Source: Rhynchopus sp. YZ270_cl-10 (taxonomy: Eukaryota). From it: a DNA stretch of 64,000 nucleotides. How positions within the stretch are numbered: position 1 is the stretch's first letter; each line of letters begins with the position of its first letter. Below, piece after piece: positions 18,956 through 64,000 of the stretch. Both the position numbers and the translations under genes were made by a program. The notes below the pieces were generated by a model, which made no database searches, was not told the origin of the DNA, and saw only the letters and a list, made by a program, of their open reading frames with translations. The DNA is taken from the NCBI GenBank assembly GCA_964035575.1, contig OZ037837.1, positions 682,001-746,000 of the forward strand, in the 5' to 3' direction.

Positions 18956-19461
18956 AATAATGAACGCAACATCGACAATTGTCCTGATGAAGCTGTAATG
19001 TGTGTGTGATGGGGAGCATGGGAGGGAAAAAACGACTCGTGGATACTGAAAAATTTCACTAGAAATGCACACACGTCAAAAAAGCTTTCTGATAAAAAAC
19101 GAGCGAAGCACAAAAACCAGCGCGTGTGAGAGAAAACAGAATGCTGTCCTGACAATTGTAGGGATTCAGGCGACGGGCTAAAAAAACCTACCCATCAGGT
19201 CTAATTTTACTGCATTTCTTATTCTCTCCATACTTTCTTTTGTTTGCATGAACAGCGGGGATTGAATTGAGTAAGGTACATCAGAAATTTCATTTCCAGG
19301 TATTTCAGGATGTCACCGAAAACGCTTAAAGAAAAGAAGATAAAAATAAAAAGCAGTTTCGGCCGTGCACGAACAGGGGGAAGGGAGGGTGGGTGGAAGC
19401 GAATACTACACACGCGAAGTGCAGTTACTCAAAAACATGCTGTCAACACGACGCGCGTAAT

Positions 19462-21459
19462 TCACGCCATCTCTTCATCCTTAGCCGTTCCGTAGTCGTA
19501 CACGTCACATCCTTCAACCAGAGCTGAAGCATCCTCCGCACAGTCCTGTTGTATGTTGTACGCCACAGACCTGCGTCGCCGTGCAAACAGCACTCCTGCC
19601 AGCACCACAACCAGAAGTGCACCAGAACCAGCCAGCAGCCAAACGTAGGTGGGAAGCGCGACTGTTGGAACAGCCGTTGGTGGTGCCTGTGTCGTGACAC
19701 GACATGTGCTGAAGCTGAAGTTCGCCACCACACCGTTGAGGGGCACATCCCCAGGGAACGTGCTCGTGTAGATGTGGTTGTCGGTGCGTGTGTCAAGTAC
19801 TGGGAGAGGACCTGAGGCAGAGACACGTTCAACACCATCGAAGAAGAGCTGTGCAAAGCCTGTGTTGTGTGACGTCGCCGTCACGACAAGCACCACATGC
19901 ATGAAGACACCGCAGCACGGTCCCGGCACAGGGTCGATGAAGATGATGTGCTGTGCACCCTGCCACACTTGGTACTCCCACTGGCCCTTGCTGTCGATGG
20001 TGAGGATCACGTTGTTCTTCTCCATTCCATTCGAGAACTCGAAGACACGTCCCATATCATTCACACCGTCCACCCGCACGTCTGCCTCCATGATGAAGCC
20101 GTCCCCTCCCAACGTGAGTGGTGCGTTACTGACAAACTCAGACGAGTCGGTGAACTGTGTGATGAGGACTGGATCCTCACACGGCAGGACTACTGGTGCC
20201 GCTGTTGGTGCAACTGTCGGAACAGCTGTTGGTGGTGCCGCTGTTGGTGCAACTGTCGGAACAGCTGTTGGTGGTGCCGCTGTTGGTGCAACTGTCGGAA
20301 CAGCTGTTGGTGGTGCCGCTGTTGGTGCAACTGTCGGAACAGCTGTTGGTGGTGCCGCTGTTGGTGCAACTGTCGGAACAGCTGTTGGTGGTGCCGCTGT
20401 TGGCGGAACTGGTGTTGGCTGGATGCCCCAGGAGAAGTGTGAGGCTTGCTCAGACTCGACGAAGATCTGCTTGCCCCTCACACAGGGGACATCCCTATAG
20501 ACGTTGACGTTGTAGAAGAGGCCACTGAAGGAAAACGCCGTCTCAGTGCCTGTGTGGTCGTGTATCGTGACAAACCCTGGCTCGTTTTTCTTCAGTGAGA
20601 ACGTCAACGTCGCGTTTTCTGTGCATGTGATAACACCTGCGTATGTCTCTTCGCTGGATGAGAGCTCACCGTTCATGCCCCACGTCGTGTTGACACCATC
20701 GTAACTGCCTGCAGCGATGTGCTGTGTGACTGCGTCAGGCGACAGTGCAGGTGTCAGCAGTTCGGGCACGCCATTGTTCGGAACAAACGTTACTCCCACG
20801 AACATGGAGAAGAAGTCCAGACGCTTATAGCTTGACTCCCAATCCAGCTTCACACACAGGTCGTCACCACGCTCCCACGCAGCATGGTCAAACGGCACAC
20901 CCGTCACCTCCACAGTCATCGATTTCCATTTCGTCATGTTCACATCCTTCGAGAACAGTGTTGTCGCGTTCGACCCACACCCCTGTGTGATGGACAACGT
21001 CGCAGAGAGCAAGGGATCTGCTTGAGTACCGATCCGCAGACTGGCGATAGACACAACGTAGTTGTCCATCACATCACCCTCAAGCAGGCTGATGGCAGAG
21101 CCCACACCAGCAGAAAGACCTCCAGACCTGTGTGGTGGTGTTGTGTGTGGCACTATGTTCCTCATTCCAAGCTGTGCTTCACTCTGTGTGCAAATGTGGC
21201 AAAAGGTTCACAACCCTCTGGTTGCTGTATTTCCTCTTCCTCGACACGATGTGTTTTACTACAAAAGATGTTAAAGCGCACAGATCTGTGTTTTGCATCT
21301 TGGCATTGTTCTGAAGTGGAAGAGGGTCACATACCCGACTGTGACACGCGCCTGTGTCGTCTGCATCTCGTGCACCGTGCTGGCCAGTGAAGCCTCTGCC
21401 AGAAGGGACAGCAGCACAAAGGCTGTGGTGTGCTTCCCCCGCTGACATGTTGTTGACAT
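19462..21459 (-). CDS. Variable-domain type-I membrane protein, locus A (~596 aa): signal peptide, V domain, PT stalk, LamG/ConA-like domain, TM, short tail
   Basis: join(21459..21335, 21127..19462). Phase-2 intron 21128-21334 (GTATGT…CACACAG). Leader MSTTCQRGKHTTAFVLLSLLAEASLA. 13-aa PTAAPPTAVPTVA repeats. LamG-like FIMEADVRVD…RVFEFSNG…MHVVLVV…LFFDG…NHI…LNGVV. TM YVWLLAGSGALLVVVLAGVLFA followed by RRRR. Confidence 0.9.
20195..20405 (-). repeat. 39-bp coding tandem repeat (~5 copies), mucin-like PT stalk
   Basis: Exact repeats of GGTGCCGCTGTTGGTGCAACTGTCGGAACAGCTGTTGGT. Confidence 0.95.
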
Positions 21460-32062: not shown

Positions 32063-33403
32063 TTACAATTTCGCCTTTTCTGGAACCACGTCGTCTAGCA
32101 CCTTCATGACATACGCGATTTCTGCCGGGGTATTGTAATGCGCAGCACTGATACGTACTACTCCGTCAGTAGTGTCAATTCCCAACGCTTTCGAGGCACC
32201 AGGGCTCATAAGGGAACCGCTTTTACATGCAATCCCCGCCTTGATTAGCCCTGTCGCAATGTCTGCGCTCTTCATGGAGTGAGAGGTGAACGACACAATC
32301 GGCTTGGTATGCGCACCGTGCGCAACCCCCGATCGCACCAACTTCAACCGTCCGTTCTGTGCAACCCACAATCGGAACGGCCTGACCACATCGTCCACCA
32401 TTTGTTTCATCACCGATAAGGCTCGAACCACCATTGCTCTGGTGCCCATTCGCTTCACCTCTACTTCTGGCAGGTTGTCCGCGAGAGTCACCACCTTTTG
32501 CAGGTACGATTCGAAGCCGAGAATGCCCGATGCGGTCGCATAGTTGGTGTGACCAGACACCATTTCAAAAACATTGGTATCGGATTCCCCATTAGGACAA
32601 ACCCACCCCCAGGCTTGGTGAGTCCCAAAGAGCACACCCGATTGAGGACAACAGTTTTTATACAGCGACATCGAATACCAATCAGGGCACAGCTCCGCAC
32701 AGTCCACGGTACCAGAGGATGCGTAAGCCACCCCATCAATCAGCACCCTTGCCGCGTTGTGACGACGTACCTCGGAGACAATCCTTTTTACGTCAATAAC
32801 TTCGCCGACCAGATTTGAGACATGAGGAATAATCACGATGGGAGCTGTCGGGGTTGATCCATCATAGCATGCTGATAACGTTGTGGAGAGCTCAGTGTGA
32901 GAGAAAAACCCTGGTTCGGAACGGTCGATTTCAGAAAGGGTGTGAAGCGTTGAACGGATATTCGCATTTTTGATGGAGTTGAGGCGTTCGTGAAGGGCGA
33001 TCCAGGGGCGGATGTGGGTCATGTGGTTCATCGCGGAGATGATGATTGGGATGTGGACGGGGCTTTGGTTGCGTAGGATGGCGTCAAAGATGCGCTCGGA
33101 GAGTGTGCTGACCAGACTGCGCGCAGAGGTGCCCAGCAAAGGATACCCCACTGTCCCGCACCCCATGTACTCATGGACAAACGCGCTGCACTCTGTCAGC
33201 ACCTCCTCCACCGCGAGCGAGCTCCCATACGCACCACCACGCTGTACATTGCACTCCCGAAAGTGTGCTGCGACCCGTTCCGTGACCTGCGTAGGGACGA
33301 AGGTGCCGCCGGCGTTCTCGAACATTACTTCGTCGTTGTCAAGCCCAGGAAAGTCGCCACGAAGCACATCGCGCATCTCCGCAAGCCTGCCCTGAGACAG
33401 CAT
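32063..33403 (-). CDS. Class-V PLP-dependent enzyme (cysteine desulfurase-like family) with C-terminal PTS1 (-AKL)
   Basis: From ATG 33403 (446 aa, intronless). Motifs FENAGG…VP, HVSNLVGEVID, DGVAYA, YSMSLYK (PLP lysine), GVVRISAAHYNT. Ends EKAKL*. Confidence 0.88.
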   Translation of the reverse strand: MLSQGRLAEMRDVLRGDFPGLDNDEVMFENAGGTFVPTQVTERVAAHFRECNVQRGGAYGSSLAVEEVLTECSAFVHEYMGCGTVGYPLLGTSARSLVSTLSERIFDAILRNQSPVHIPIIISAMNHMTHIRPWIALHERLNSIKNANIRSTLHTLSEIDRSEPGFFSHTELSTTLSACYDGSTPTAPIVIIPHVSNLVGEVIDVKRIVSEVRRHNAARVLIDGVAYASSGTVDCAELCPDWYSMSLYKNCCPQSGVLFGTHQAWGWVCPNGESDTNVFEMVSGHTNYATASGILGFESYLQKVVTLADNLPEVEVKRMGTRAMVVRALSVMKQMVDDVVRPFRLWVAQNGRLKLVRSGVAHGAHTKPIVSFTSHSMKSADIATGLIKAGIACKSGSLMSPGASKALGIDTTDGVVRISAAHYNTPAEIAYVMKVLDDVVPEKAKL

Positions 33404-33535
33404 CGTTATTAATTGAGTCTTTTTCAAAAAAAAAAATGTGTTTATTGCTTCAATCCTGGAGTGTAGGGATGTATTGAAAATCGATAGTACTATCAAGAGT
33501 GTAAGGGTTGAAGAGCAAAGTGTAAGGAAAACATT

Positions 33536-34106: not shown

Positions 34107-36029
34107 TCAAAGCTTTAGTGAGGCTGGTGTACGCAGATGCAGGTTATCAACAAACAAACGGCGATAAAATAAATAGAAAAAGGGTTGCAGCTTCAAGGAG
34201 GAGGGGGGGTATTTCCTTTTTCCTTTTCTTCCCACACTATTTTCTTTCCTTACTTCAAAAACTCTCTCTTTTTTGATTGATTTGGTTTTGGTTTTGGTTG
34301 AGACACAGCAATGGTGTCGGTTCTGTGGAATCACTGAACCACCCATATCCTGTATCACATCGTTGATTGTTCTTTCCCTGCGTTGACTGCAGGAAAGTTC
34401 GCGAAAACTATCGCGACCAGGAATAAAAGACTCCTGCATCGGTTTTCTTTTTCACATGTTCATATCCAGTGTTTCCGCTATGAATTTTATTTTCCCTTCC
34501 TTCAAAACTTCACACGCAACGCTTTTTTGGTTTTTGGGAGACACACAAGGTGCCAGGTTCTATGATAAGCACGGAACCACCCTGCACCTGTTTGTCATGT
34601 TGTTTCCCGTGCAATATATGGAGAAACGTTTCGCACTCGAAACAAGGGAAAGCTTTTTGAATAAAAAATGAACGAAGCACAAAAACAAGCGCGTGTGGAA
34701 GAAAAAAGGGAAAATATTTTTCTGATTCATAGTGGTGTTTATGTTTTGGGTACGGGGCGGAGAATAAAATCTGTTCGATAAAAGAAACGCAAGATTTTTA
34801 TTTTTTCTTGTTCAGATCATAGATGGCAGTCGGGCCGAGTCGGGCATATTGTAGTCAATATAAGGTCTGACATGCAAGCGATGCTACTGCAGCAAGGTAT
34901 TACTAAAAATTGAAACCGCACTCCTACTTTTCCTTTTTACGTTTTTTTCGCGACCCCCGCAATAAAGCACCTGATTTTTACCCCGTGTATAGGCGTATAG
35001 GCGTATAGGCCCGTATAGGTCGGACCCCAGAAGTACGACAATTCCACCACAAAAAAAAAAGCACACCCCCCAAAAAAGGGCTTTGTACGTAAACCATGAG
35101 TGCCAAACGTTACAAAGGGAGAGGGGGTTTTCAGAATAAGAAAACTAAATAAACTTCTTTTGAAATTATTACGCATCCACTTGCCGTTTGGATAAAGAAA
35201 ACAAAGACGAAAAAGGGGGTTTTGGGGGGAAGAGTTTAATTCTTGAACGCATCCCCACACTCAGTCACACACCACACACATTTAGATAAAACAAAAGTGC
35301 ATTACGTATCCAAAACAGAGATGTTTGGGACGACATCAGATTTCTGTATTGGCGTAACAGGGAGAGGAGGGGGTGCTCCTACAGGTGCCTATCATAACGG
35401 ATTAGTCAGGGGGACCAGTAGTGGAACCACTGGTCGTAACGACTAGTGCTAAACTGGTAGTGTTACGGGTGTAACACTAGTCGTAAAAACACCAGTCATT
35501 TGAGCTAGTAGCACTACTAGTAGTCCTTTTGACTCATCCGCCGTGATCAAGTAGTCGTGGGAGGCTCAACAACTGCAACAACCATCCTCTGCCCAGGCGT
35601 ACCAGGGTACAGGGGCCTTCGGTGGATGGGTTACTGCTGCTTCGAGAGGGTGCGTCACGTTATTGATCAAAAGAAACAATATTAAGCGTGCTGCAAACAC
35701 GACTGTGCTTGCAGGAAGCGACGACAAACAAAGAAACAGAGCGAAAGACTCGTCGCATTGCACCACAGGAGAAGAGAGGCCATCCCGCACAGAAAACACA
35801 CACACAGACAACCCTTAAGGAAGCATGCCACATTGATGTTTGATGAAAAGTAAAGAAAACTATAAACAGAATCTGCAAACACGTCTGTGCTTGCAGTAGT
35901 GGTTTCGCACAAAACAAACCTGTTACGTTTCGTTTTGCACAAATAGGCGGGCTGGGAGGAGGTGGTGGTGAGTACTACACAGTGAAGTGCAGGTACTCAT
36001 ATACACGCTGTCAACACGACACACGTAAC

Positions 36030-36533
36030 TCACGTCATCTCTTCCTCCACGTAGTCGTACGCGTCACATCCTTCAACCAGAGCTGAAGCATCCTGTACGC
36101 AGTGCTGTTGTCCGTTGTACTCCACCACAGACCTGCGTCGCCCTGCAAACAGCACTCCTGCCAGCACCACAACCAGAAGTGCACCAGAACCAGCCAGCAT
36201 CCAAACGTAGGTGGGGATACCAGAGCCCGTCCCCTCACTTCCAAACCTGTGTAGGTAGTGTTGTGTAGGGCATAAGGATCATTCTGAAAAAAAGTGTGCT
36301 TTATTGTCTCTGCTAGACCCCTCTGTGCAAATGTGGCAAAAGGTTCACAACCCCTCTGGTTGCTGTATTTCCTCTTCCTCGACACGATGTGTTTTACTAC
36401 AAAAGATGTTAAAGCGCACAGATCTGTGTTTTGCATCTTGGCATTGTTCTGAAGTGGAAGAGGCTATGAGGGTCACATACCCGACTTCGACAGGTGACAG
36501 TGTTGGCGCAACTGTCGTGACAGCTGTTGGCGG
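36030..36533 (-). other. Orphan second TM/cytoplasmic-tail exon (36246..36030) with its intron and a stub of a PT-stalk exon
   Basis: Phase-2 acceptor CTACACAG|G-TTT-GGA. Intact frame FGSEGTGSGIPTYVWMLAGSGALLVVVLAGVLFAGRRR…YDYVEEEMT*. Family intron 36247-36480. Stub PPTAVTTVAPTLSPVEVG at 36481-36533. Confidence 0.85.
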
Positions 36534-36789
36534 AATTATTCAGAACATATTTCAAAAAAGGATCTCGAGCTTTCCTCGTGGAACGAGTAAGCATCAGAAG
36601 CTCTATCCTGTCATCACCAAAGGGTACGAGGATGGACGCTGACGAATGCAAAATACTGTGGAGGGCGAGACACAATGCTTCTGGAGCATTGCAGAGTGCA
36701 TCGAGACTTGACCAAGCTCGTTATATCACAGCTCTGCATCAGAACATTCGAGGTACAATTACGATACCACCCAACACAACACACGTAAC

Positions 36790-39700
36790 TCACGTCATCT
36801 CTTCCTCCACGTAGTCGTACGCGTCACATCCTTCAACCAGAGCTGAAGCATCCTGCTCGCAGTGCTGTTGTCCGTTGTACGCCACCACAGACCTGCGTCG
36901 CCGTGCAAACAGCACTCCTGCCAGCACCACAACCAGAAGTGCACCAGAACCAGCCAGCATCCAAACGTAGGTGGGGATACCGGATCCTGTCCCCTTGTCC
37001 TGCACTGCTGGTACTGGTGCTTGTGCAGCCCACTGCAGGCCACAGGGCGCAACGCAGCTGGCAACAACCGCACTCCCCTTCACACACCGCACCACAAGCA
37101 CACCCTCCATGTTGCTCGCCACGTGCAGCGTCAGGTCCGCCCCCACTGCCGACACCGACCCCAGCGTGGCCGTCACCGTCACGTCTGCGTCATCCTCGCA
37201 CAGCAGCGTGCCTGAGAAGTCCTTCACAGCAGAGCTGTGTGCACCTGACGTCTGCAGGCTTGCTCCTGTCGCGTTCACAGCCTTCGCCACAGACAGTGTG
37301 GGCAGCACGTCCACTTCGGAACCCCCTGGCACATCGTGAGGCACAAACACCGACTGCACACGCATTGTGAAGGCGAAACTCATACGCCCCGTCTGCGCCG
37401 ACATGGGGCTCGCACGGAAATACATCTTCTCTGCGTACACCGTGCTTGGCGTGCCAACAAACGTCTCGTTTGGGCCAAGTGTCACCTCCGTCGACCACAG
37501 CACGGCGTCGCTGTTCGCCGAGTGAAGCACCAACACAAACTCCACTGTCTCCCCCTCAGTCGGCCCACGGGTCAGCACAAAGCTCAGCATGTATGCCGTG
37601 TGTGAGTCAGACAGGTCCACCTTTGTGAGCTTGAACGGCGACATCAGGTCCAGCGAGACTGTGTTCACCATGCTGTGTGTTTGAAACATGAAGCAGTTTT
37701 CGTGGAATTCATAATAGTGCAGGACCGCGGTACAAAACAAGCTTGACATACCTGTGCACGCGAAAGTCAATGAAGCCCTCGACAACTGCCGAAAGAAATT
37801 CTGTTCCGTTCACGAGAGGTGGTGATGTCGTCACAATGAATGGTGGCACTGCGGACGGGTCGACACTTGTTGAGGGCACGTGCGTTGGCCCGCCCCACCC
37901 AAACACAGCATCGGCAGTGGCAGACACCCATATGGCACTGCCACGCAGGCAGGTCGTCGTGAAGACCGTCACCACACCTGGGTCCTGAAACATGAAGGAC
38001 GTCGTGTTCGAGGCCAGCACACGCAACGAACCTCTGAACGGAGACACCGTGAACGTCATCTCGCTGTCCACAGCACCACAGTCCAGCATCTGCATCTCAG
38101 ACGTCATATCGTGATTGTGGCTCTCGCCAGACATCGGCAAAAGAGGCAAGAACCCAAACTCATTTCTGTTGAGTCGCAACCGCGCCACGTCCAGCACAGG
38201 CACCTCAGGCATTGGTGTGAACTTGGTGTGCAACAACATCGTGCAATTGAATTCGTTTCCGCCTTCCTTCTGTGCCTGGAACAACACTGTGAACGTCTTT
38301 CCGTCCAAAGTCTCCTCTGCCGTGATCGTGGCAGTTTGCCCCGGGCCGAGAGTGACCCACTGCAGGACGCTCCCTGTGTCGCCAATCACTGTAACCCAAA
38401 AGATCGCACTTTCGCTGTCACCTGCAGCACGTGACAGCGTGAGTGCATCAAATGAAAGCAACTGACCAGGAACACTCAAGAATCCTTGAGCCAACTCAAA
38501 AACAGACCTGCAAAAATGGAGAATGGAGATACGTGGGGTGGGTGGGCCATTCCCATTGAGGGTAAGGAACAAACAAAAGAAAAGGATGCAAGATGCATCT
38601 AAGCCCCACGTGCTTAATCATAATCAATAATAGTATCAAAACATACCCCGGATCGTGTGTGCGCACCCGAGCCTTGACAATTTGAGTGACGGCGACAGCA
38701 ACTGCGACTGGTGACAATGTTGTCTCAACAGTGGGAAGAGCTGTTGGCAGTGCTGTTGGGGGACTAGCTGTTGGTGGAGCAACTGTCGGGGAAACTGTTG
38801 GCCAAGGTGTTGGCGGGGCAACTGTTGGGGAAACTGTCGGAACAGCAGTTGGCACAGCTGTGGGAGGAGCAACTGTTGGGGCTGCTGTTGGGGAAACTGT
38901 CGGAACAGCAGTTGGCACTGCTGTTGGTGGAGCAACTGTCGGGGAAACTGTTGGCCCAGGTGTTGGCGGGGCAACTGTTGGGGAAACTGTCGGAACAACA
39001 GTTGGCACAGCTGTGGGAGGAGCAACTGTTGGGGCAACTGTCGGCACTGCAGTTGGCACAGCTGTTAGTGGAGCAAGTGTTGGCCAAACTGTAGGCACTG
39101 CAGTTGGCACAGCTGTGGGAGGAGCAACTGTTGGGGCTGCTGTTGGGGAAACTGTCGGAACAGCAGTTGGCACTGCTGTTGGTGGAGCAACTGTCGGGGA
39201 AACTGTTGGCCCAGGTGTTGGCGGGGCAACTGTTGGGGAAACTGTCGGAACAACAGTTGGCACAGCTGTGGGAGGAGCAACTGTCGGCACTGCAGTTGGC
39301 ACAGCTGTTAGTGGAGCAAGTGTTGGCCAAACTGTAGGCACTGCAGTTGGCACAGCTGTTGGTGGAACAAATGTTGGTGCAACTGTCGGAACAGCTGTTG
39401 GCGGTACTGCTGTTGGGGTTACGTCAAAGAAGGCCCAGGAGAAGTGTGAGGCTTGCTCAGACACGACGAAGATCTGCTTGCCCTTCACACAGGGGACATC
39501 CATCCAAACGATGCCGTTGTTCTTGTTTGCGCTGAAGGAAAACGCCGTCTCAGCACCTGTGTGGTCGTGGATCGTGACAAACCCTGGCTCGTTCGCCTTC
39601 AGTGAGAACCTCAACTTCCCGTACTCTGTGCATGTGATAACACCTGCGTATGTCTGTGCACTGGAAGAGAGCTCACCGTTCATGCCCCACGTCGTGTTGA

Positions 39701-42519
39701 CACCATCGTAACTGCCTGCAGCGATGTGCTGTGTGACTGCGTCAGGCGACAGTGCAGGTGTCAGCAGTTCGGGCACGCCATTGTTCGGAACAAACGTTAA
39801 TCCCACGGACATGGAGAAAAATTCCAGAAGTGCAGACGTCCCTGTCAGCTTCAAACACAGATCGTCACCACGCTCCCACGCAGCACGGTCAAACAGCACA
39901 CCCGTCACCTCCACAGTCTTCAATCTCCATGCCCCCATGGTCACATCCTTTGAGAACAGTACTGCTGCGTTCGACCCACACCCCTGTGTGATGGACAGCG
40001 TCGCGAAGAGAGGATCTGCTTTGGTTTGGAGCCTCAGACTGGCGATAGACACAACGTAGTTGTCCATCACATCACCCTCAAGCAGGCTGATGGCAGAGCC
40101 CACACCAGCAGAAAGACCTCCAGACCTGTGTGGTGGTGTTGTGTGTGGCACTATGTTCCTCATTCCAAGTACACAAAGATGCGTAATACTGTGCTTCACT
40201 CTGTGTGCAAATGTGGCAAAAGGTTCACAACCCTCTGGTTGTTGTATTTCCTCTTCCTCGACACGATGTGTTTTACTACAAAAGATGTTAAAGCGCACAG
40301 ATCTGTGTTTTGCATCTTGACATTGTTCTGAAGTGGAAGAGGGCCACATACCCGACTGTGACACGCGCCTGTGTCATGTGCATCTCGTAGAAGAAGGCGT
40401 TCCAGGAGAAGTATGAGGCTTGCTCAGACACGACGAAGATCTGCTTGCCCTTCACACAGGGGACATCCATCCAAACGACGCCGTTGTTGTTGCTTGCGCT
40501 GAAGGAAAACGCCTGTGTGCCTGTGTGGTCGTGTATCGTGACAAACCCTGGCTCGTTGTCCTTCAGTGAGAACCTCAACTTCCCGTACTCTGTGCATGTG
40601 ATAACACCTGCGTATGTCTGTGCACTGGAAGAGAGCTCACCGTTCATGCCCCACGTCGTGTTGACACCATCGTAACTGCCTGCAGCGATGTGCTGTGTGA
40701 CTGCGTCAGGCGACAGTGCAGGTGTCAGCAGTTCGGGCACGCCATTCTTCGGAACAAACGTTAATCCCACGGACATGGAGAAAAATTCCAGAAGTGCAGA
40801 CGTCCCTGTCAGCTTCACACACAGGTCGTCACCACGCTCCCACGCAGCACGGTCAAACGGCACACCCGTCACCTCCACAGTCATCAATCTCCATGCCCCC
40901 ATGTTCACATCCTTCGAGAACAGTGTTGGTGTATTCGACCCACACCCCTGTGTGATGGACAGCGTCACATCCGCATCTTCTTTTGCCCAGATGGTCAGAC
41001 TGGTGATAGACACAACATAGTTGTCCATCACGTCACCCTCAAGCAGGCTGATGGCAGAGCCCACACCAGCAGAAAGAGTTCCAGACCTGTGTGGTGGTGT
41101 TGTGTGTGGCACTATGTTCACAACCCCTATGGTTGTTGTATTTCCTCTTCCTCGACACGATGTGTTTTACTACAAAAGATGTTAAAGCGCACAGATCTGT
41201 GTTTTACATCTTGACACTGTTCTGAAGTGGAAGAGGGCCACATACCCGACTGTGACACGCGCCAGTGTCCTGTGCATCTCGTGCACCGGGCGGGCAACTG
41301 ATGCAGCAAGTGTAGTTGGTGGTGTTTCTGTTGCTGGTGCTGCAGTGGCAGGAGTCGGTGTTGGTGGTGCAACTGTTTGCGGTGCGGACGTTACGCGGGC
41401 GGGCATACTGGTGACAGGTGTCTGTGTTGGTGGTGGAAGTGTTGACATAGCTGTCGGTACTGCTGTTGGGGTTGCGTCAAAGGCCCAGGAGAAGTGTGAG
41501 GCTTGCTCAGACACGACGAAGATCTGCTTGCCCTTCACACAGGGGACATCCCAAGAAACGTAGGCGTTGTTGTTGCTTGCGCTGAAGGAAAACGCCGTCT
41601 CAGCGCCTGTGTGGTCGTGTATCGTGAGAAACCCTGGCTTGTAGGACTTCAGTGAGAACGTCACCTTCCCGGACTCTGTGCATGTGATAATACCTGCAGA
41701 TATCTGTGCACTGGAGGAGAGCTCACCACTCATGCCCCACGTCGTGTCGACACCATCGTAGCTGCCTGCAGCGATGTGCTGTGTGACTGCGTCAGGCGAC
41801 AGTGCAGGTGTCAGCAGTTCGGGAACGCCATTCTTCGGAACAAACGTTAATCCCACGAACATGGAGAAGAAGTTCACAAGCTGAGCATCCCCTGTCAGCT
41901 TCACACACAGGTCGTCACCACGCTCCCACGCAGCACGGTCAAACGGCACACCCGTCACCTCCACAACTACCGATGTCTCCCTGTTCACATCCTTCGAAAA
42001 CAGAGTTGTCGCGTTCGACCCACACCCCTGTGTGATGGACAGCGTCGCAGTAAAGACATCTGTTTGGAGCTTCAGACTGGCGATAGACACAACATAGTTG
42101 TCCATCACATCACCCTCAAGCAGGCTGATGGCAGAGCCCACACCAGCAGAAAGACCTCCAGACCTGTGTGGTGGTGTTGTGTGTGGCACTATGTTCCTCA
42201 TTCCAAGTACACAAAGATGCGTAATACTGTGCTTCACTCTGTGTGCAAATGTGGCAAAAGGTTCACAACCCTCTGGTTGCTGTATTTCCTCTTCCTCGAC
42301 ACGATGTGTTTTACGACAAAAGATGTTAAAGCGCACAGATCTGTGTTTTGCATCTTGGCATTGTTCTGAAGTGGAAGAGGCTATGAGGGTAACATACCCG
42401 ACTGTGACACGCGCCTGTGTCCTGCTCATCTCGTGCACCGTGCTGGCCAGTGAAGCCTCTGCCAGAAGAGACAGCAGCACAAAGGCTGTGTGCTTCCCCC
42501 GCTGACATGTTGTTGACAT
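36790..42519 (-). CDS. Variable-domain type-I membrane protein, locus B (~1630 aa): leader, three V domains, long PT stalk, two further beta-rich modules, TM, tail
   Basis: join(42519..42398, 42163..41246, 41086..40352, 40125..38647, 38507..37752, 37672..36790) = 4893 nt, open throughout. All five introns are GTATGT…CAG and phase 2. Internal exons of 918, 735, 1479 and 756 nt are all multiples of 3. Confidence 0.88.
38720..39420 (-). repeat. Coding higher-order PT-rich repeat (PTAV/PTVA/PTVS units)
   Basis: About 230 codons of degenerate 12-15-nt units with a duplicated larger block (…PTVWPTLAPLTAV… occurs twice). Confidence 0.95.
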
Positions 42520-43432
42520 TGTGGTACCTGGGTGGTGTGGTGTGGTCGTGTGGGCATGAACATCCTTGGTCATATGGCTACAGCGCTGCTTTGAAGATGT
42601 GGACCAAGGGTCGCGCCAAGTCACCGCAGACGAACCTGAGACTTCATGTTGGAGTTCGAAAAACACAGTCAGACTTTGTCTCCGGACCCGGGTCTGGGAA
42701 AGTGCTGCGGGGGGTACGGAGATTACGTCCGAATTCACCGTTTCTGACCCGCTCGTCTCTGGTGTTCCTCTTGCCCCAAAGCTTCAAAGTTTTGGTGAGT
42801 AAGTGAGGCTGGTGGACGCAGATGCAGGTTATCAACAAAACGGAAAAATAAATAGAAAAAGGAGGGCGGGGGGATTTCCTTTTTTTTGTTGTGTCGACAA
42901 TCGCCTGCTAGTGCAGGATCTGTACTTAATGTCTTTTTCCTTTTTCTTCTCGCACTGTGTTCATCTCCCCGATAAAGAAGGAAAAGTCATGATAAGATGA
43001 TCTAAGCCTCTTGCGCTTAGTCACCAATAAATGCTCTCAATATTCTGACGGGAGGGGTGAGGAAGTGCAACGTGAAAAAGAAAACCTTTTGTTGAGTCTC
43101 TTATTGGAAACTGTTTTCTTCTCCGCTAACACACAAAAAAAAAAAAAAAAAAAAAACACTTGACAGGAAAAAATGTTTTTCACACAACGTTTTTTGCTGT
43201 TCTCCTTTTTTAACTTTCTGCTTTTCCTCTTTTTCAAAAAAAGCCTTTGTCCTACATTTCCCCTACACTTCTACTGCCTTTTTATTCTGGAATCACTAGA
43301 ATTTTAGTAACTCAGGACGCTCTCCTTATTTGGGTACCTACCCCCCCCCCCCCCCCCTATAGGTGTCAGTATTTGTATTTTGATGTATTTTTGTATTTTG
43401 ATGAGGGGCCCATCAAAATACATCAAAATACA

Positions 43433-43612
43433 CTGTGTACTGTGTACTGTGTACTGTGTACTGTGTACTGTGTACTGTGTACTGTGTACTGTGTACTGTG
43501 TACTGTGTACTGTGTACTGTGTACTGTGTACTGTGTACTGTGTACTGTGTACTGTGTACTGTGTACTGTGTACTGTGTACTGTGTACTGTGTACTGTGTA
43601 CTGTGTACTGTG
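43433..43612. repeat. (CTGTGTA)n heptamer microsatellite, ~25 perfect copies
   Basis: Directly visible. Flanked by GTATTTTGAT/ATCAAAATAC repeats. Confidence 0.97.
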
Positions 43613-47668: not shown

Positions 47669-48142
47669 TCAGTTCCATTCCTGGATACGCTTTTGGTCGA
47701 GCCTGCAGTTGATCCAGGTACGATCCATCTCGGAGTCTAACTTTTTGACATAGAAATCGATCGCACTTTGGTTCCAATCGAAGACCTGCCACTCGAGACG
47801 GGTAGCTTGGAGGGCTTGGGCACGCTTGGCTACCGCGTCGAACAGTTTGTAGCCAATTCCTGCACGGCGGTGTTTCTCGGATATGTACAGATCCTCAAGG
47901 TAGATTGTCATGCCTTTCCAGGTGCTGTAGCGCTTGTAGAACAGCGCAAAGCCCACGACGGTGCCCTCCACCTCCGCCACAAAGGTCTCAAACAGATTCT
48001 TCTCGAAGCCGTCCGCCTCCAGCTGCTCCGGTGTGAGCACCGCCTCCTCCTCCGCGTTCTCGTAGATCGCAAGCTCTTTGATGAGCCCGACAACGGCGGC
48101 CATATCGGAACGCTCACCAGAGCGGACAGCGACCTCTGTCAT
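47669..48142 (-). CDS. GNAT N-acetyltransferase, diamine/thialysine acetyltransferase (SSAT-like) family
   Basis: 157 aa from ATG 48142. Motifs LIKELAIYE, DGF, VVGFALFYKRYSTWKG, YLEDLYI…RRAGIG, WQVFDWN…AIDFY. Confidence 0.92.
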   Translation of the reverse strand: MTEVAVRSGERSDMAAVVGLIKELAIYENAEEEAVLTPEQLEADGFEKNLFETFVAEVEGTVVGFALFYKRYSTWKGMTIYLEDLYISEKHRRAGIGYKLFDAVAKRAQALQATRLEWQVFDWNQSAIDFYVKKLDSEMDRTWINCRLDQKRIQEWN

Positions 48143-55594: not shown

Positions 55595-58500
55595 AGTGGA
55601 GAGGGTGTATGTTGTATGTCTGTAAAGGTTTATGAATAGTAGGTACCAACGGAGTACATAGTTGATGCAGTCAGGACCTCCGACTGACTCACGATGCGAG
55701 TCATCCGGATGAAAGTATAAGGCCCTAAGGCTAAGAAGGTGTGAAATGGAGGCCTCATGGCTTATCTGTACCGCAGTGTGTGAACGGGGGCGGCGCGCAG
55801 CCGCCACCTTCCCCTTTGCGCTGACCTTCCGAGAGATGCTGATCAATGGCAAGCACGGCATCATAACAAAAAGGGGGTTTATGTAGAAAGGCGAACCCAC
55901 CTTTGCATGTACGGTGATAGAAAAGTAAGGGGGGCTGGGGGTGCCAGGGGGAACACGTAAATAATGAGTGCTAAACCGAATAATGGGAGAAGGGTGGACT
56001 CGACTCAACGGTCCTATCACGACGGACTAATCAAGGGGACCAGAGTAGTGCTAGACTGGTGTGTTACTGGTGTAACACTAGTCGTAAAAACACTAGCCAT
56101 TTGGACTAGTAGCATAACTAGTGGTCCTTTTGACTCATCTGCCGTAATCAAGTAGTCGTGGGAGGCTCAACAACTGCAACAACCATCTTCTGCCCAGTTA
56201 GGGCCTTTGTTGGATGCGTTGCTGCTGCCCTTAAAGAAGCCTGCCACGTTTGATGAAAAGTTTTATTTCCCAACCCAACAATGATAAAGCGTGAAGACAA
56301 TAAATAGCAAATAATAATGAATCTAAGGTCTTGTGAGGCATCAACGAGTGTGCCGGCTCTTTGGCGTCACGGAGCCACCAACACTCCCTGCGCCTGCAGG
56401 AAAACTCGCGTACGTGACTAAGGGAGTGCAATATTTTTGCAAGGAACGCATAAAAAAACAAAAAAACAGAATCTGCAAACACGTTTCTGCTTGCAGCAGT
56501 GGTTTCGCACAAAACAAAGTGAAGTTATTAATGCAGGCACCTCCGACTGACCCACGTACGATGCCAGCCATCCGGATGAAAGCACAAGTACCCTGCGGCC
56601 AACAACAGAAGATATAAAGAGGAAACCTAATGACTGGCCCGTACCGTAAGAGAACGAGGGCGGTTCACATGCTTGGTACACGATAGTCTACACAAGAGAG
56701 CAGAAACCCAAAAACACAAAAAGGGGTGGGCGGGGGGGGTCACAACATCTCTCTCTTGGCGCCCCATGCTGTACCGACAGTTGGGCCTCACCCTTTCTCT
56801 TAGGGATATACATGGACGTCCTTACAGGCAGCACACCGTAACCCAAAGGCGTGGCATCCGCAGAGCGACTCTGGCCTGACCGCTGGCCAGTTATGCTCCG
56901 GGTGCGAGCACCCATCATAGCATAGGGGGGCCAGCCTGACCCAGCATTTATATACCCTGCCAGGGTGAACTTGCATAAAAGAGGGTAGGGGCGTTTAGAC
57001 CCTGAAGTCCCGCATACCCCAACAGAAAGACAAAGGCTATGCACTGGTGATATAGGAGAGGCAGGGTTGCTGAAAAACAAAAAGACCCTGAAGGCACAAA
57101 AACGCCCCGCATACCCCTCCTCGCCTCCTGTTTTGTAATCTCTCAGGTAGGAGACATCGGTTCGAGCGGTCAACACCTTCATAGAGTTTCTGGAGGAATG
57201 GACCCCCGGATGCAATTTAAGGTCCAGCCCAGGACCAAAAAAAAAAGTTGCGTACCGTGCGCCTGCGGCGCAAGCATGTACCCCACCAACGTGGACCATC
57301 AACAGAACATTTTCAAAATCGGAAATCCTAGCGGAGAGCCTGATCCACATAGATAAAGAAAACAAAAACACGACACGACAGCAAGAAAGGAAGTAAAAAT
57401 TATTTTTTTAAAAAAGACTGCACGGTAAACAGACGTAACTCACTCCATCTCTTCCTCCACGTAGTCGTACGCGTCACATCCTTCAACCAGAGTTGAAGCA
57501 TCCTGCTCGCAGTGCTGCTGTCCGTTGTACTCCACCACAGACCTGCGTCGCCCTGCAAACAGCACTCCTGCCAGCACCACAACCAGAAGTGCACCAGAAC
57601 CAGCCAGCAGCCAAACGTAGGTGGGGATACCAGAGCCCGTCCCCTCACTTCCAAACCTGTGTCGGTAGTGTTGTGTAGGGCATAAGGATCATTCCGCAAA
57701 AAAGTGTGCTTTATTGTCTCTGTTAGACCCCTGTGTGCAAAAGTGGCAAAAGGTTCACAACCCTCTGGTTGTTGTATTTCCTCTTCCTCGACACGATGTG
57801 TTTTACTACAAAAGATGTTAAAGCGCACAGATCTGTGTTTTGCATCTTGGCATTGTTCTGAAGTGGGAGAGAGACACATACCCGACTTCGACAGGCGCCG
57901 CTGTTGGTGCAACTGTCGGTGGTGTTTCTGTTGCTGGTGTTGCAGTGTCAGGCGTCGGTGTTGTCGGTGCAACTGTTTGCGGTGTGGGCGTTACTGGTGC
58001 AGCTGTGTCAGGTGCTGATGTGGCAGGCACAGCGGTGACAGGTGTCTGTGTTGGTGGTGCAACTGTGTGAATATCTATTGACGGGACAACTGCGGTTGGT
58101 GGTGCAACTGTTTGCGGTGCGGGCGTTGCTGGTGCAGCTGTGTCAGGTGCTGATGTGGCAGGCACAGCGGTGACAGGTGTCTGTGGTGCCTGTGTCGTGG
58201 CCCTGCATGTGCTGAAGCTAAAGTTCGCCACCACACCGTTGAAGGGCACATCAATAGGGAACGTGCTCGTGTAGATGTGGTTGTCGGTGCGTGTGTCAAG
58301 TACTGGGAGAGGACCTGAGGCAGCCACACGTTCAACACCATCGAAGAAGAGCTGTGCAAAGCCTGTGTCGTGTGACGTCGCCGTCACGACAAGCGTCACA
58401 TGCATGAAGACACCGCAGCACGTTCCCGGCACAGGGTCGATGAAGATGATGTGCTGCGCACCCTGCCACACATGGTACTCCCACTGGCCCTTGCCGTTGA

Positions 58501-60187
58501 TGGCGAGGATCACACCGTTCTTCTCCATCCCATTCGAGAACTCGAAGACACGTCCCATATAATTCACACCGTCCACCCGCACGTCTGCCTCCATAATGAA
58601 GCCGTCCCCTCCCAACGTGAGTGGTGCGTTGCTGACAAACTCAGACGAGTCGGTGAACTGTGTGATGAGGACTGGATTCTCACACGGCAGGACTACTGGT
58701 GCTGTTGCCTGTGTCTTGGCCCGACATGTGCTGAAGCTGAAGTTCGCCACCACACCGTCGAGGGGCACATCCCCAGGGAACGTGCTCGTGTAGATGTGGT
58801 TGTCGGTGCGTGTGTCAAGTACTGGGAGCGGACCTGAGGCAGAGACACGTTCAACACCATCGATGAAGAGCTGTGCAAAGCCTGTGACATGTGACGTCGC
58901 CGTCACAACAAGCACCATATGCATGAAGACACCGCAGCACGGTCCCGGCACAGGGTCGCTCAAGATGATGTACTGTTTACCCTGCCACACGTGATACTGC
59001 CACTGGCCATCGGCGTTGATGGTGAGGATGACGCCGTTCTTCGCCTTCCCATTTGAGAACTCGAAGACACGTCCCATCCAGGCAACCTTGTCCACCCGCA
59101 CGTCTGCCTCCATGATGAAGCCGTCCCCTCCCAACGAGTGGTGCGTCGCTGACAAACTCAGACGAGTCGGTGAACTGTGTGATGAGGACTGGATCCTCAC
59201 ACGGCAGGACTACTGGTGCCGCTGTTGGTGCAACTGTCGGAACAGCCGTTGGTGGAGCAACTGTTGGGGAAACTGTTGGCGGAACATCCGTTGGCGGTAC
59301 TGCTGTTGGGGTTACGTCAAAGAAGGCCCAGGAGAAGTGTGAGGCTTGCTCAGACACGACGAAGATCTGCTTGCCCTTCACACAGGGGACTTCCACCAAG
59401 CTGTGGAAGTATCTTCCCCCCCCAGTAAACGCAGTCACAGCACCTGTGTGGTCGTGTATCGTGACAAACCCTGGATCGTATTTCTTCATTGTGAACGTCA
59501 CCTTCCCGTACTTTGTGCATGTGATAACACCTGCGTATGTCTCTGCACTGGATGAGAGCTCACCGTTCATGCCCCACGTCGTGTTGACACCATCGTAGCT
59601 GCCTGCAGCGATGTGCTGTGTGACTGCGTCAGGCGACAGTGCAGGTGTCAACAGTTCGGGCACGCCTTTGTTCGGAACAAACGTTAATTCTATGAGCATG
59701 GAGTAGAAACCTATATCAGCCCCTGTCAGCTTCACACACAGGTCGTCACCACGCTCCCACGCAGCACGGTCAAACGGCACACCCGTCACATACACAGGAC
59801 GGGACCATTCCCATGAATCCATGGCCACATACTGCGAGAACAGTGTTGTCGCGTTCGACCCACACCCCTGTGTGATGGATGTCACCGATCCAGCATAGGC
59901 ATCTGCTTTCATCCTCAGACTGGCGATAGACACAACATAGTTGTCCATCACATCACCCTCAAGCAGGCTGATGGCAGAGCCCACACCAGCAGAAAGACCT
60001 CCAGACCTGTGTGGTGGTGTTGTGTGTGACACTTTTTTTTTGTTTCGGACATTGAAACATGTAGTCAACTATTGTGCTCTGATTGTTAGCCGCTTGTGTA
60101 AAACAGAGAAAAGTTTATAAGATGATCCTAAGCCTCTCGTGCTTAGTCACCTGAGGGGGAGAATAGAACCTGGCGGAGAGACACAGG

Positions 60188-60470
60188 CAGGGTATTAGGG
60201 TGGTTAAAAAAACTGGTTTTGAAAACCGGTTTTTCCAAAAACTGGTTTTCAAAGAAAAAAAAAAAACAGAGAAATCTGGAGGGGAAAAAAAAACCGACAC
60301 TTTTCACCAGGCCTTTCTGTAAATGTCGTCCCCAGATTAGGGCGGACTCGATTTTTTTCCCCGCATTTTTCCCCCGCCTGCTGGAACCGTGGTTGAACCA
60401 CGGGAGTGCCTTTGGGAAATGGCTGTTCCTTGATTTTTTTTTTTGCCTGCGGCGCCAATTTCCTTTTTTT
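60188..60470. mobile_element. Half copy of the hAT MITE
   Basis: Starts CAGGGTATTAGGGTGG and matches the reverse complement of ~820-1060. Confidence 0.88.
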
Positions 60471-60642
60471 GTCTTCTTCGCTTTCTTCTTCCTCCTCACC
60501 TTCCTCTTCTTCTTCTTCCTCTTCATCATTGTCATCGTCATCGTCATGGTCTGAGGGTAGCTCGTGCCAAGGAATCTCATTACACACGCAAACTCTGAAG
60601 TCTTCCCCATTTGTGTATCCAGGAGTGCGCAAAAACCTCTGA

Positions 60643-61057
60643 CCCCCTTGTGATCTTCTGCAAACATGTGCCCCCAAACCCAGGGTTTTCAATCGCTTCA
60701 CTAAGTTTTTCGACGCAACAACAGCGAACTGGAGGAGTTTCTTGGGCAACCTGCAGATGCATACAAGAAGGAGACAAGTCGCCTGCGTCTGGATGTACCT
60801 CGGAGGCCTGCGTTGTGCGGAGGTAAAGTCGGTGGTGAAAGGGGGGCTCGCCCTTGTCAAGAAGGACCAAACGTCGTACTACAGGGTGGAGTACATGCCG
60901 GGAAAGCAGCGAGGAAGTGTGCCTGCTACACTGGGCACGCCATGCGTCGCAGCAGTCGTTGGAGATGGGTGCTACTCCGGACCAGCTGAAGACGCACTAC
61001 AATTGGCGTAGTGCGCAGATGGTCCAGGCGTACACCACCTTGACATTTTACATGTAG
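60643..61057 (+). pseudogene. Tyrosine recombinase remnant (Crypton/DIRS-type mobile element)
   Basis: Catalytic motifs in order across a frameshift/deletion: YLGGLRCAEV (R), PGKQR (K), LHWARHA (H-x-x-R), THYNWRSAQMVQAY (W…Y). Confidence 0.75.
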
Positions 61058-61457
61058 GTTGACCTTTTTACAGTCAATATACGTTACCGCACATGTCATT
61101 TTGCATGTAAAATGACATGCGTTTTGCATGTAAAAAGAGTTACATGGAAAGCACATGTAAAAGCACATGTCATGTCATTTACTTCACCGTCGTGTAACTT
61201 CCCCCCTGGGTTTCCATGTGCACCACCATCTGCACCACCATAAAATCATACACACTTACGTGTGTATGGTCATGAATCACCAAAAGGGGAAAGAGGAAAA
61301 AAAGAGAGACTATCATACAAAAAGACCCTCTCCTAGTTTTCGGCTTCATTTCCTATTGTACCGCACCCAATCACCCACCAACAGATGCACACACACAGTG
61401 GGCCAAAACCCCCTAAATTTTCGCTTTCGGCACTATTTGGAGGCAATATGATTACAA

Positions 61458-61601
61458 ACTCCTGGGAGAAATTGAATATTTTTCCCCTTGGGGGGTGCCA
61501 ACTCCCTTGGATTCGTATTTTCCTCGCCTTCGGCTTGGGAAATACAAATCCTTGGGAGTTGCACCCCCCAAGGGGAAAAATATTCAATTTCTGCCTGGAG
61601 T
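61458..61601. repeat. Palindromic hairpin element centred on GCCTTCGGC
   Basis: Arms ACTCC…AGAAATTGAATATTTTTCCCCTTGGGGGGTGC.AACTCCC..GGATT.GTATTT and AAATACAAATCC..GGGAGTTGCACCCCCCAAGGGGAAAAATATTCAATTTCT…GGAGT. Confidence 0.9.
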
Positions 61602-62649
61602 ATATAACTAGCGCATAACGCAGCACTGCTGTGCTCTTCACAAAAGTGTCTGCTGATGAAGTGTGCTAAAAAAAACAACAAGTCGCATCCTTGTGCCGTG
61701 ACACATACCCGAAAGTGACACGCGCCTGAAAAGTCCGCATCTCGTGCACCGTGCTGGCCAGTGAAGACCCCGCAAGAAGAGACAACAGCACAAAGGCTGT
61801 GGTGTGCTTCCCCCGCTGACATGTTGTTGACATTGTGGTACCTGGGTGGTGTGGTGTGGTCTGGAAAAAAACACTGGGGGACAGAAAACCTTTCTGTGAC
61901 CTCGGGAGACCCAACACCCCGACCAGCCTGCCTTCCATCTCCACTGCCGCTGGCAACGTGATGTCCTCTGCCATCTGGGTGGTGTCATCTCTAACACCAG
62001 AAGAGTTGAGCAGAGTCACGGGGCAGGATGCTTCGCATCGGTTGGCAGTGTCACGTGCTCAGTCACCTTGATCACAATCGGTTTTATGTAGAAAGGTGAA
62101 CCCACCTTTGCAGTATTGGTGAGAGGAAAAAGTCAGGGTAGTCTGGGGGTGGAAACACATCAAGAATGAGTAGTACTGAACGTAACAAAGGGAGGAGGAG
62201 GGACTCAGGGGAGGGATCCGGTGGACTACTAGTGGAACCACTGGACTCACTGAAAACAAAAGCAACATTTTTAAAAACAAATATCTTGGGTGTGTTAGAC
62301 AGGCGCGTATCGTGGTATCGAACACTTTACTTTTGTTGGTAACAAACACCTTAAAACGATGAATCTGCCTTTCGTGCATACATCGACTAAATATGAGAGA
62401 AAATGGGGGGGAAATGGGTTGGAATTCAAAAAGGGGAGAAAATGTGAAATACAAAGCCCCCTCGTGGCAGTGCACCTTTAAAAGGAAGAAAGAACCCGTG
62501 AATAACGAATGGGTCTGGGGGAAATGGCCTGGCATGTTTCAAAAGGGGCATGGTTGTTGGAAATCATCGCGAGATTGGGCGGTTTTCTGGTAACAACGTG
62601 GACAGGAAAGAATAAAATTTGAAAAGTGAATGTCCCCCATAGCACATTC

Positions 62650-63370
62650 AGAAAAAGCTGGCGTTCGTAACGAATAGTGCTAAACTAGTAGTGTTACAGG
62701 TGTAACACTAGTCGTAAAAACACTAGTCATTTGAGCCAGTAGCATAACTAGTGGTCCCTTTGACTCATCCGCCGTGATCAAGTAGTCGTGGGAGGCTCAA
62801 CAACTGCAACAACCATCCTCTGCCCAGGTACCAGGTACAGGGCCTTTGTGGATGTGTTACTGCTGCTTCGAGAGGGTGCGTCACTTTATTGACATTTGAT
62901 CAAAAGGAAAAAGAAAAGTTTATACGATGATCCCAAGCCTCTCGTGCTTAGTCACCTGAGAAAAATATTGAGCGCGCTGCAAACACTACTGTGCTGGCAG
63001 GAAGCGACGACAAACAAAGAAACAGAGCGAAAGACTCGTCGCATTGCACCACAGAGAAGCCATTCCGCACAGAAAACACACACACAGACAACCCTTTAGG
63101 AAGCATAGACAACCCTGTAGAAGCATGCCACATTCACATTTGATGAAAAGTTATGACCAACCTAAAACTATAAACAGAATCTGCAAACACGTCTGTCCGG
63201 TCACGTGTCGTTCCCTCACCCCCCTTCTTGTAGTGGTCGATGCGTTGACGCTTCAAAGTTCTGCATGGCTTGCTTGCACAAACAGGCGGGCTGGGAGGAG
63301 GTGGTGGTGAGTACTACACAGTGAAGTGCAGGTACTCATATACACGCTGTCAACACGACACACGTAACTC
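62650..63370. repeat. 3'-flank segmental repeat shared by the receptor loci
   Basis: Homologous to ~35440-36030 and in part to ~56040-56230 (GTAACACTAGTCGTAAAAACAC…CAAGTAGTCGTGGGAGGCTCAACAACTGCAAC). Confidence 0.85.
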
Positions 63371-64000
63371 ACGTCATCTCTACCTCCTTCATCATCAAAC
63401 TCTCTTTCGTCGCATTCAACCACAGTTGCTTCCTCAGTCCTCGAACAGACCAGCATCTGTGCGTAAGTAGCACCCCTGCCAGCACCACTACTGCCAGCAC
63501 TACAACCAGAAGTGGAACAGCTATTGGTGTTGCCTGTGTCTTGTCCCGACATGTGCTGAAGCTGAAGTTCGCCACCACACCGTCGAGGGGCACATCCCCA
63601 GGGAACGTGCTCGTGTAGATGTGGTTGTCGGTGCGTGTGTCAAGTACTGGGAGCGGACCTGAGGCAGAGACACGTTCAACACCATCGATGAAGAGCTGTG
63701 CAAAGCCTGTGACATGTGACGTCGCCGTCACGACAAGCACCATATGCATGAAGACACCGCAGCACGGTCCCGGCACAGGGTCGACGAAGATGATGTGCTG
63801 TGTACCCTGCCACACGTGGTACCCCCACTGGCCCTCGGCGTTGATGGTGAGGATCACGTTGTTCTTCTCCATCCCATTCGAGAACTCGAAGACACGTCCC
63901 ATCCAGGCAACCTTGTCCACCCGCACGTCTGCCTCCATGATGAAGCCGTCCCCTCCCAACGTGAGTGGTGCGTTGCTGACAAACTCAGACGAGTCAGTGA
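63369..64000 (-). CDS. Membrane-protein family locus D, 3' end only (LamG-like domain plus a divergent TM/tail); continues beyond the window
   Basis: Open frame to the window edge. LamG-like domain closely matches loci A and C. TM IAVPLLVVVLAVVVLAGVLL. Confidence 0.85.
   Translation of the reverse strand, partial: TDSSEFVSNAPLTLGGDGFIMEADVRVDKVAWMGRVFEFSNGMEKNNVILTINAEGQWGYHVWQGTQHIIFVDPVPGPCCGVFMHMVLVVTATSHVTGFAQLFIDGVERVSASGPLPVLDTRTDNHIYTSTFPGDVPLDGVVANFSFSTCRDKTQATPIAVPLLVVVLAVVVLAGVLLTHRCWSVRGLRKQLWLNATKESLMMKEVEMT

Follow-up and report, generated by a model that had tools for sequence, protein, structure and literature searches.

We analysed a window of 64,000 nucleotides (nt) from the diplonemid Rhynchopus sp. 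YZ270_cl-10 (GCA_964035575.1, contig OZ037837.1, forward-strand positions 682,001 to 746,000; positions below are those within this window), and in particular its locus B, in which a leader exon is followed by three homologous exons (V1 to V3), two diverged modules (X and Y) and a transmembrane (TM) segment. Locus B is probably one gene that is spliced intron by intron, whose phase-2 exons originated from the repeated copying of a unit of one intron plus one module, and whose intron copies would act as in-frame points of crossover between DNA copies. An earlier note on this DNA had described the locus as a Dscam-like platform for combinatorial splicing or shuffling. The shuffling or tandem duplication part of that description agrees with the intron copies, the homogenised intron core and the varied domain orders presented here, while we found no positive evidence for Dscam-like combinatorial splicing.

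All nine introns of the family that were listed for the window have a GTATGT donor and an AG acceptor on the minus strand, and six of them are 90-99% identical over 132-226 nt. The seventh, the 1.7-kb leader intron of locus C, of which only the two ends were compared, has a 27-nt acceptor end in common with these six, and the remaining two stand before the exons X and Y. Since the introns are copies of one another, their common phase 2 is inherited and does not reflect nine independent events: copying a segment that contains one intron would yield an exon flanked by the same phase on either side. The phase had been claimed for all nine and holds for the coding introns. It does not apply to intron 36247-36480, because the reading frame closes at a TGA codon (36792-36790) and this intron lies 310 nt into the 3' untranslated region (3'UTR), which also includes the TM exon 36030-36246; the TM intron of locus C sits behind a 2-nt frameshift near 59135. 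The leader exons of loci A, B and C (125, 122 and 125 nt) all end in phase 2. As described before, the internal exons of locus B measure 918, 735, 1479 and 756 nt, each of the three V exons has the acceptor ACACCACCACACAG directly followed by GTCTGGA, and the leader, V1 and V2 exons end in EM..T.ARVTVG.

V1, V2, V3 and X each occupy one exon with phase-2 introns on both sides and Y begins at a phase-2 intron; LamG modules, which occur in other members of the family, are not bounded by introns. Sequence comparison traces Y to an ancient copying of V (hhalign 64%, E 6e-5; 19.6 bits vs. a best of 5.3 in 1000 shuffles), and weakly so X (hhalign 22%; 8.0 bits vs. the same 5.3). With these two modules and the seven related introns, all nine introns may descend from a single phase-2 intron. 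The introns before V exons and those before TM exons have a core that is 96.9% identical (1103/1138), whereas outside this core the upstream exon ends are 41.9% identical, the 3' parts of the introns 65.0% and the downstream exons 61.5%. The leader-V1 intron is a mosaic: it has an 8-nt insertion in common with the TM-type copy in the 3'UTR, to which it is 97.5% identical over 160 nt, and a V-type 3' end. The number and order of the modules vary among the paralogues: leader-V-LamG-TM (locus A), leader-V-V-V-X-Y-TM (B), leader-V-LamG-LamG followed by an intron and TM (C) and LamG-TM (D) in the window, and V-TM (P0009), V-LamG-LamG and V-stalk forms on seven other contigs, one of which carries five V-stalk open reading frames (ORFs). 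On other contigs V ORFs form arrays of 3-5, and 16 of the 19 family ORFs from the seven contigs, very distant members included, end in a donor-like read-through G/S-Y-V (seen at the protein level, in contigs that possibly represent other assemblies). Taken together, the homogenised core, the mosaic leader-V1 intron and the varied domain order are best read, without amounting to proof, as germline exon shuffling through a shared intron.

Splicing was inspected in sequencing runs X1 to X6, none of them recorded as RNA. The comparison with X6 spans 35900-38690 and that with X1-X4 spans 39430-42700 (the V region); the Pro/Thr (PT) stalk at 38691-39429 is in neither. Run X6 behaves as RNA, and splicing of the V3-X and X-Y introns is seen in it, that of the 3'UTR intron less firmly; i.e. 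two of the six introns of locus B are absent as joints and a third by short overhangs. The 139-nt V3-X intron is missing at an exact joint from one contig with the letters of the window (depth 13.8, 46 letters on the short side), and the 79-nt X-Y intron is missing at an exact joint from one contig with 8 other letters (depth 30.5, 112 letters on the short side). For the 3'UTR intron, two reciprocal loose ends of 13-14 nt match exact removal, one of them on a 330-nt piece with UTR specific to locus B; the transcript in which this intron beyond the stop codon appears spliced has the same contig depth as the coding exons. All junctions in X6 join a donor to the nearest acceptor. No alternative joint is listed at the acceptor of X or of the second TM exon in X6, where rare forms drop from the contigs and 9 loose ends are outside the listing, so this is not counted as absence. 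The DNA-like runs X1, X3 and X5 retain the introns on 35900-38690 (one X1 contig covers 36952-38690 without a difference), and X1-X4 keep them on 39430-42700 with no spliced joint; being DNA-like, the latter are silent on splicing. An apparent 'skip' of 914 nt in the V region, with 20 other letters in between and present in DNA-like runs, was rejected as a paralogue, and the summed contig depth over V and the intron core, many times that of unique regions, is not usable as copy number. The 3'UTR copy appears spliced, so the shared intron sequence is likely removed locally even in the absence of a coding role, and the resemblance of this copy to the leader-V1 intron suggests that the sibling introns may be removed in the same way.

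Joined from the leader through V1, V2, V3 and X to the last coding exon, the frame of locus B encodes 1630 residues. The product is predicted to be a type I membrane protein in which a signal peptide is followed by the three V modules with Pro/Thr stalks, by two V-like modules that have diverged and by a TM helix; the translation has an N-terminal hydrophobic stretch and one segment of TM strength (residues 1575-1593), followed by an RRRR motif and a short tail that contains Tyr. Retention of intron 42164-42397 would add 78 residues, and retention of the V1-V2 or V2-V3 intron would lead to a stop after 21 residues and a form without TM.

Neither V1 nor V2 matched a Pfam family at E up to 0.1, none was found for the V, X or Y modules in general, and a sequence search of the PDB with V gave no match below E 0.04. 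A model of V from 15 sequences (pLDDT 64.7) predicts two jelly-roll beta-sandwiches. For residues 134-229 the matches are to a PPC domain (Z 7.8, root-mean-square deviation (rmsd) 3.2 over 88 aligned residues) and to CUB (Z 7.0), and for residues 5-115 to jelly rolls of the carbohydrate-binding type (Z 7.1); tandem-CUB proteins top the Foldseek list for the first V model. The best matches overall (5sv5, 1nqd, 7tl6 and 6yg8) have Z 7.0-7.8 and rmsd 2.9-3.3 over 88-100 residues at 7-12% identity, and none reaches Z 8. The predicted fold of each V half thus resembles the PPC/collagen-binding, CUB and carbohydrate-binding jelly-rolls, from which V differs by this low identity and Z and by the lack of a Pfam match. 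No V, X or Y module gave a CUB or PPC profile match above cut-off, and the jelly-roll likeness may be a mere common arrangement, so that we do not assign a family.

The three V modules of locus B are 81-89% identical at the protein level, and their differences are clustered. Variable patches were defined from ten proteins from outside the window (residues 31-41, 61-74, 93-106 and 192-207, with scattered sites at 167-178). Among the five V copies of the window the rate of nonsynonymous change (dN) was 0.425 in the 62 variable codons vs. 0.044 in the 161 framework codons, and that of synonymous change (dS) 0.30 vs. 0.08. The dN/dS ratio in the patches was 1.42 (95% interval 0.95-2.27), or 1.85 (0.96-4.23) away from gaps, for five copies whose pairwise counts are not independent, and that of the framework was 0.53 (0.32-0.91), according to which the framework is under purifying selection. 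In the model the first three patches extend over the connections that follow alternate strands in the first sandwich, and therefore likely lie at one end. The complementarity-determining regions (CDRs) of antibodies lie at one end of their domain. A target of a diversity-generating retroelement, with adenine-specific mutagenesis, was rejected: all six substitution pairs are common in the patches, with 65-124 counts each.

On the reading that we prefer, intron-by-intron splicing of locus B would yield a single cell-surface protein of 1630 residues, and the leader-V and V-V introns would be spliced constitutively like their sibling in the 3'UTR. The near-identical intron copies would serve as in-frame crossover points for shuffling of modules at the DNA level, such that unequal crossing-over or gene conversion inside the intron could add, remove or swap modules over generations. 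The variable patches would then be loops of a binding surface for the recognition of prey, host, virus or self, held out on the Pro/Thr stalks.

Several points weigh against this reading. X6 is a single run of assembled contigs with no library type on record, which is RNA-like by its behaviour, and its evidence stops short of the leader-V and V-V junctions. The 8 other letters at the 79-nt junction imply that it stems from a close copy or allele, and the overhangs at the 3'UTR junction stay below the 31-letter threshold for a bridge. PHI-like permutation tests for recombination were significant neither for six introns (p 0.077) nor for five V copies (p 0.15), though 195 of the 351 informative site pairs were incompatible in the latter. 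The conserved intron core could be a functional RNA element and not the product of conversion; Rfam gave 0 matches on 35900-42700. The interval of dN/dS in the patches makes positive selection borderline, and the fold is modelled with modest confidence (pLDDT 65, best Z 7.8).

Since X6 could not cover the leader-V1-V2-V3 region, combinatorial splicing is not refuted by it. Skipping of exons that are concatenated by default, often enough to give 0-3 V modules and possibly aided by pairing of introns, is unlikely in our estimate. It is possible in principle, since the frame is kept whichever subset of V1, V2, V3 and X is joined to either TM exon (32 of 32), as the earlier note had argued for the V exons; its further suggestion that ARVTVG would preserve the first strand of the domain is unsupported, for the paralogues P0012 and P0013 reach the same donor read-through with other exon ends, and the V model is of low confidence at residues 1-20. 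Moreover, the donors hardly differ from one another, nor do the acceptors, the frame of the second TM exon is open, and splice variants are reported for the phase-2 leucine-rich repeat (LRR) exons of brown algae (excerpt of PMC11378527). In Diplonema papillatum exons are occasionally skipped (PMC10161547, in the part available). A self-complementary 12-mer in four copies of the shared intron (42345, 41201, 40307 and 36428) could pair between copies and is the sole element found that could loop exons out. Yet duplication by itself explains why the exons are compatible in frame, the junctions listed for X6 all join nearest neighbours, the exons are long (735-1479 nt) and the introns short (79-234 nt), alternative splicing is estimated for only 5% of the multi-exon genes of D. 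papillatum (PMC10161547), and the best duplexes between introns do not exceed those of shuffles (7 pairs; 2-20 of 40 shuffles as good). A Dscam-like mutually exclusive choice, with exactly one V exon placed between the leader and a constant X-Y-TM part, is highly unlikely. The three homologous exons do share frame and splice sites and do stand between a leader and a constant-looking block, and the V arrays on other contigs would suit such a choice. However, X and Y, V copies as well, are used one after the other, and each V-V intron is a complete copy of an intron whose splicing is likely local. In the excerpts of PMC6071210 and PMC3228551, mutually exclusive clusters include a single exon, have exons of similar length and often pair docking and selector elements. 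The V exons differ by 61-248 codons, against the similar length in PMC3228551, and are alike in length only in their V parts; no docking or selector element was found among 7 intron pairs, the longest exact inverted match in the pre-mRNA being 12 nt (the self-complementary 12-mer is one such match), a search that short or bulged elements could escape.

Plain and largely neutral tandem duplication, recent and in a repeat-prone region, with no special role of the intron and no selection for diversity, we consider improbable. It would account for the duplicated pieces of unrelated genes in the window, for the frameshift in locus C and the leftover TM unit in the 3'UTR, and for the dS that is also raised in the patches; repeated gene ends are common in D. 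papillatum according to the available text of PMC10161547. It does not predict that amino-acid change is concentrated about tenfold in patches that were set from proteins of other contigs while the framework is constrained, that the intron core is homogenised across exon types, or that even very distant paralogues retain the phase-2 donor read-through. Little probability is also left for a diplonemid variable-receptor system, in which a non-immunoglobulin (Ig) module with CDR-like hypervariable loops would sit on exons made interchangeable by one universal intron and would have its repertoire generated within a clone by frequent intron recombination or combinatorial skipping, with cells differing in the receptors on display; the leading fold matches of the V model, at pLDDT 65, include no Ig-superfamily receptor, which does not exclude one.

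The V-module family works like an exon-shuffled variable surface family and is not shown to be a Dscam-type cluster. By analogy, it is a so far undescribed diplonemid counterpart of the exon shuffling of brown-algal ROCO genes. Both have one module per symmetric phase-2 exon, a variable number of modules and an open debate on DNA shuffling vs. alternative splicing. Recombination within and between genes (probable in the diplonemid), variable residues on a face that is presumed to bind, and pseudogenes (of which locus C is a candidate) are further parallels. The diplonemid module differs in its size (~230 residues in two beta-sandwiches vs. a 24-residue repeat), in being part of a PT-stalked protein that is predicted to be a type I membrane protein, in an intron-poor euglenozoan, and in the one near-identical intron before unlike types of exon. 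With metazoan exon shuffling, as outlined in the excerpt of PMC6335736, it has in common the assembly of multidomain extracellular proteins from modules bordered by same-phase introns, but the phase is 2-2 and not mostly 1-1, and the process is confined to one lineage-restricted family; the same excerpt calls the shuffling of symmetric modules minor outside animals. The likeness to arthropod Dscam1, as far as the partly available sources describe it, is that homologous exons stand in tandem in the gene of a surface receptor and keep their frame and splice sites; unlike in Dscam1, no exclusive or alternative splicing was seen, each exon holds a whole domain and the best fold matches are jelly-rolls.

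Table 1. Features of locus B and its paralogues in the window
Feature	Position	Strand	Remark
CA-rich AG acceptor	42528..42546	-	8 nt upstream of locus B ATG; candidate spliced-leader trans-splice site
Leader exon	42398..42519	-	122 nt of coding sequence; signal peptide predicted, with its hydrophobic core at residues 12-20
Leader-V1 intron	42164..42397	-	Shared copy, phase 2, 234 nt, stop-free in frame
V1 exon	41246..42163	-	918 nt; V module and short Pro/Thr stalk
V1-V2 intron	41087..41245	-	Shared copy, phase 2, 159 nt, internal deletion
V2 exon	40352..41086	-	735 nt; V module, predicted two jelly-roll beta-sandwiches
V2 hypervariable patches	~40998-40966, 40905-40864, 40809-40768, 40515-40465	-	
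V2-V3 intron	40126..40351	-	Shared copy, phase 2, 226 nt
V3 exon	38647..40125	-	1479 nt; V module and ~245-residue PT-repeat stalk (39425-38688); PF04886, E 4e-11
V3-X intron	38508..38646	-	Phase 2, 139 nt; absent from run X6 contig
Exon X	37752..38507	-	756 nt; weakly V-like module; hhalign 22%; 8.0 bits
X-Y intron	37673..37751	-	Phase 2, 79 nt; absent from run X6 contig
Last coding exon	36790..37672	-	Module Y (diverged V), TM helix (36969-36904), stop-transfer motif RRRR, tail with Tyr
3'UTR	36481..36789	-	Ends in ~60-nt remnant of stalk-exon end with intact donor
Intron within 3'UTR	36247..36480	-	Shared copy, likely spliced in run X6
Second TM exon copy	36030..36246	-	Open frame, 96% like the first; in 3'UTR of the transcript seen
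Paralogue A	19456..21459	-	Leader, then V-stalk-LamG-TM
Paralogue C	57429..61833	-	Leader, then V-stalk-LamG-LamG-stalk, then TM; 2-nt frameshift near 59135
Paralogue D	63275..64000	-	LamG-TM; cut by window end

The frameshift of paralogue C lies at the start of its first LamG domain, where 2 nt are missing relative to paralogue A (59135-59136), and may mark either a pseudogene or an assembly error. The leader intron of this paralogue (60007-61708) has grown to 1.7 kb and includes a dispersed repeat, which is found again in inverted orientation at 808-1040. Beyond the window, a profile search of 1.84 billion representatives gave 10 matches: nine members of the family (eight from ENA contigs and one that is paralogue A) and one bacterial LRR protein, which at E 2e-4 was rejected as a chance match. 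The relatives of V are confined to a few eukaryote-like ENA contigs. The best score in a search of the Atlas was 0.85, which is no usable match, and the literature search found no description of a V-module surface-protein family or of exon shuffling in diplonemids.

The long ORFs with family matches in the window are all on one strand. A CA-rich AG acceptor precedes the ATG of locus C (at 61842) as it does that of locus B, and together these features likely fit a diplonemid with spliced-leader addition. Directly upstream of locus B, a 7-nt unit occurs in 26 perfect copies (43432-43612) with short repeats on the flanks. An intronless ORF of 2565 residues (2796-10493, minus strand) has a weak match to an ADP-ribosyltransferase (PF01129, E 9e-5), and parts of this ORF recur as duplicates at 1915-2172, 23261-24740 and 29506-30682. 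The gene of a GNAT acetyltransferase (47669-48139, minus strand) has its best outside match in Rhynchopus euleeides (69%) and the next in a cluster that includes Rhynchopus humris (Diplonemidae); the next relatives beyond the diplonemids are of bacterial type (46-56% identical, with Bacteroidetes among the named ones), and the gene is possibly a horizontal acquisition. The genes of a class-V aminotransferase and a DUF6687 protein (32063-33535 and 48866-50041, minus strand) are ordinary neighbours.

Diplonemids are abundant marine protists whose surface proteins have barely been described, and the V-module family is a candidate for the recognition of prey, host or virus. It also offers a compact case on which to test intron-mediated shuffling of modules beyond animals and brown algae, with a single putative crossover substrate of 150 nt and copies that are similar enough to map exchanges. 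Should skipping or rearrangement within a clone prove to be true, a unicellular euglenozoan would possess a variable-receptor system.

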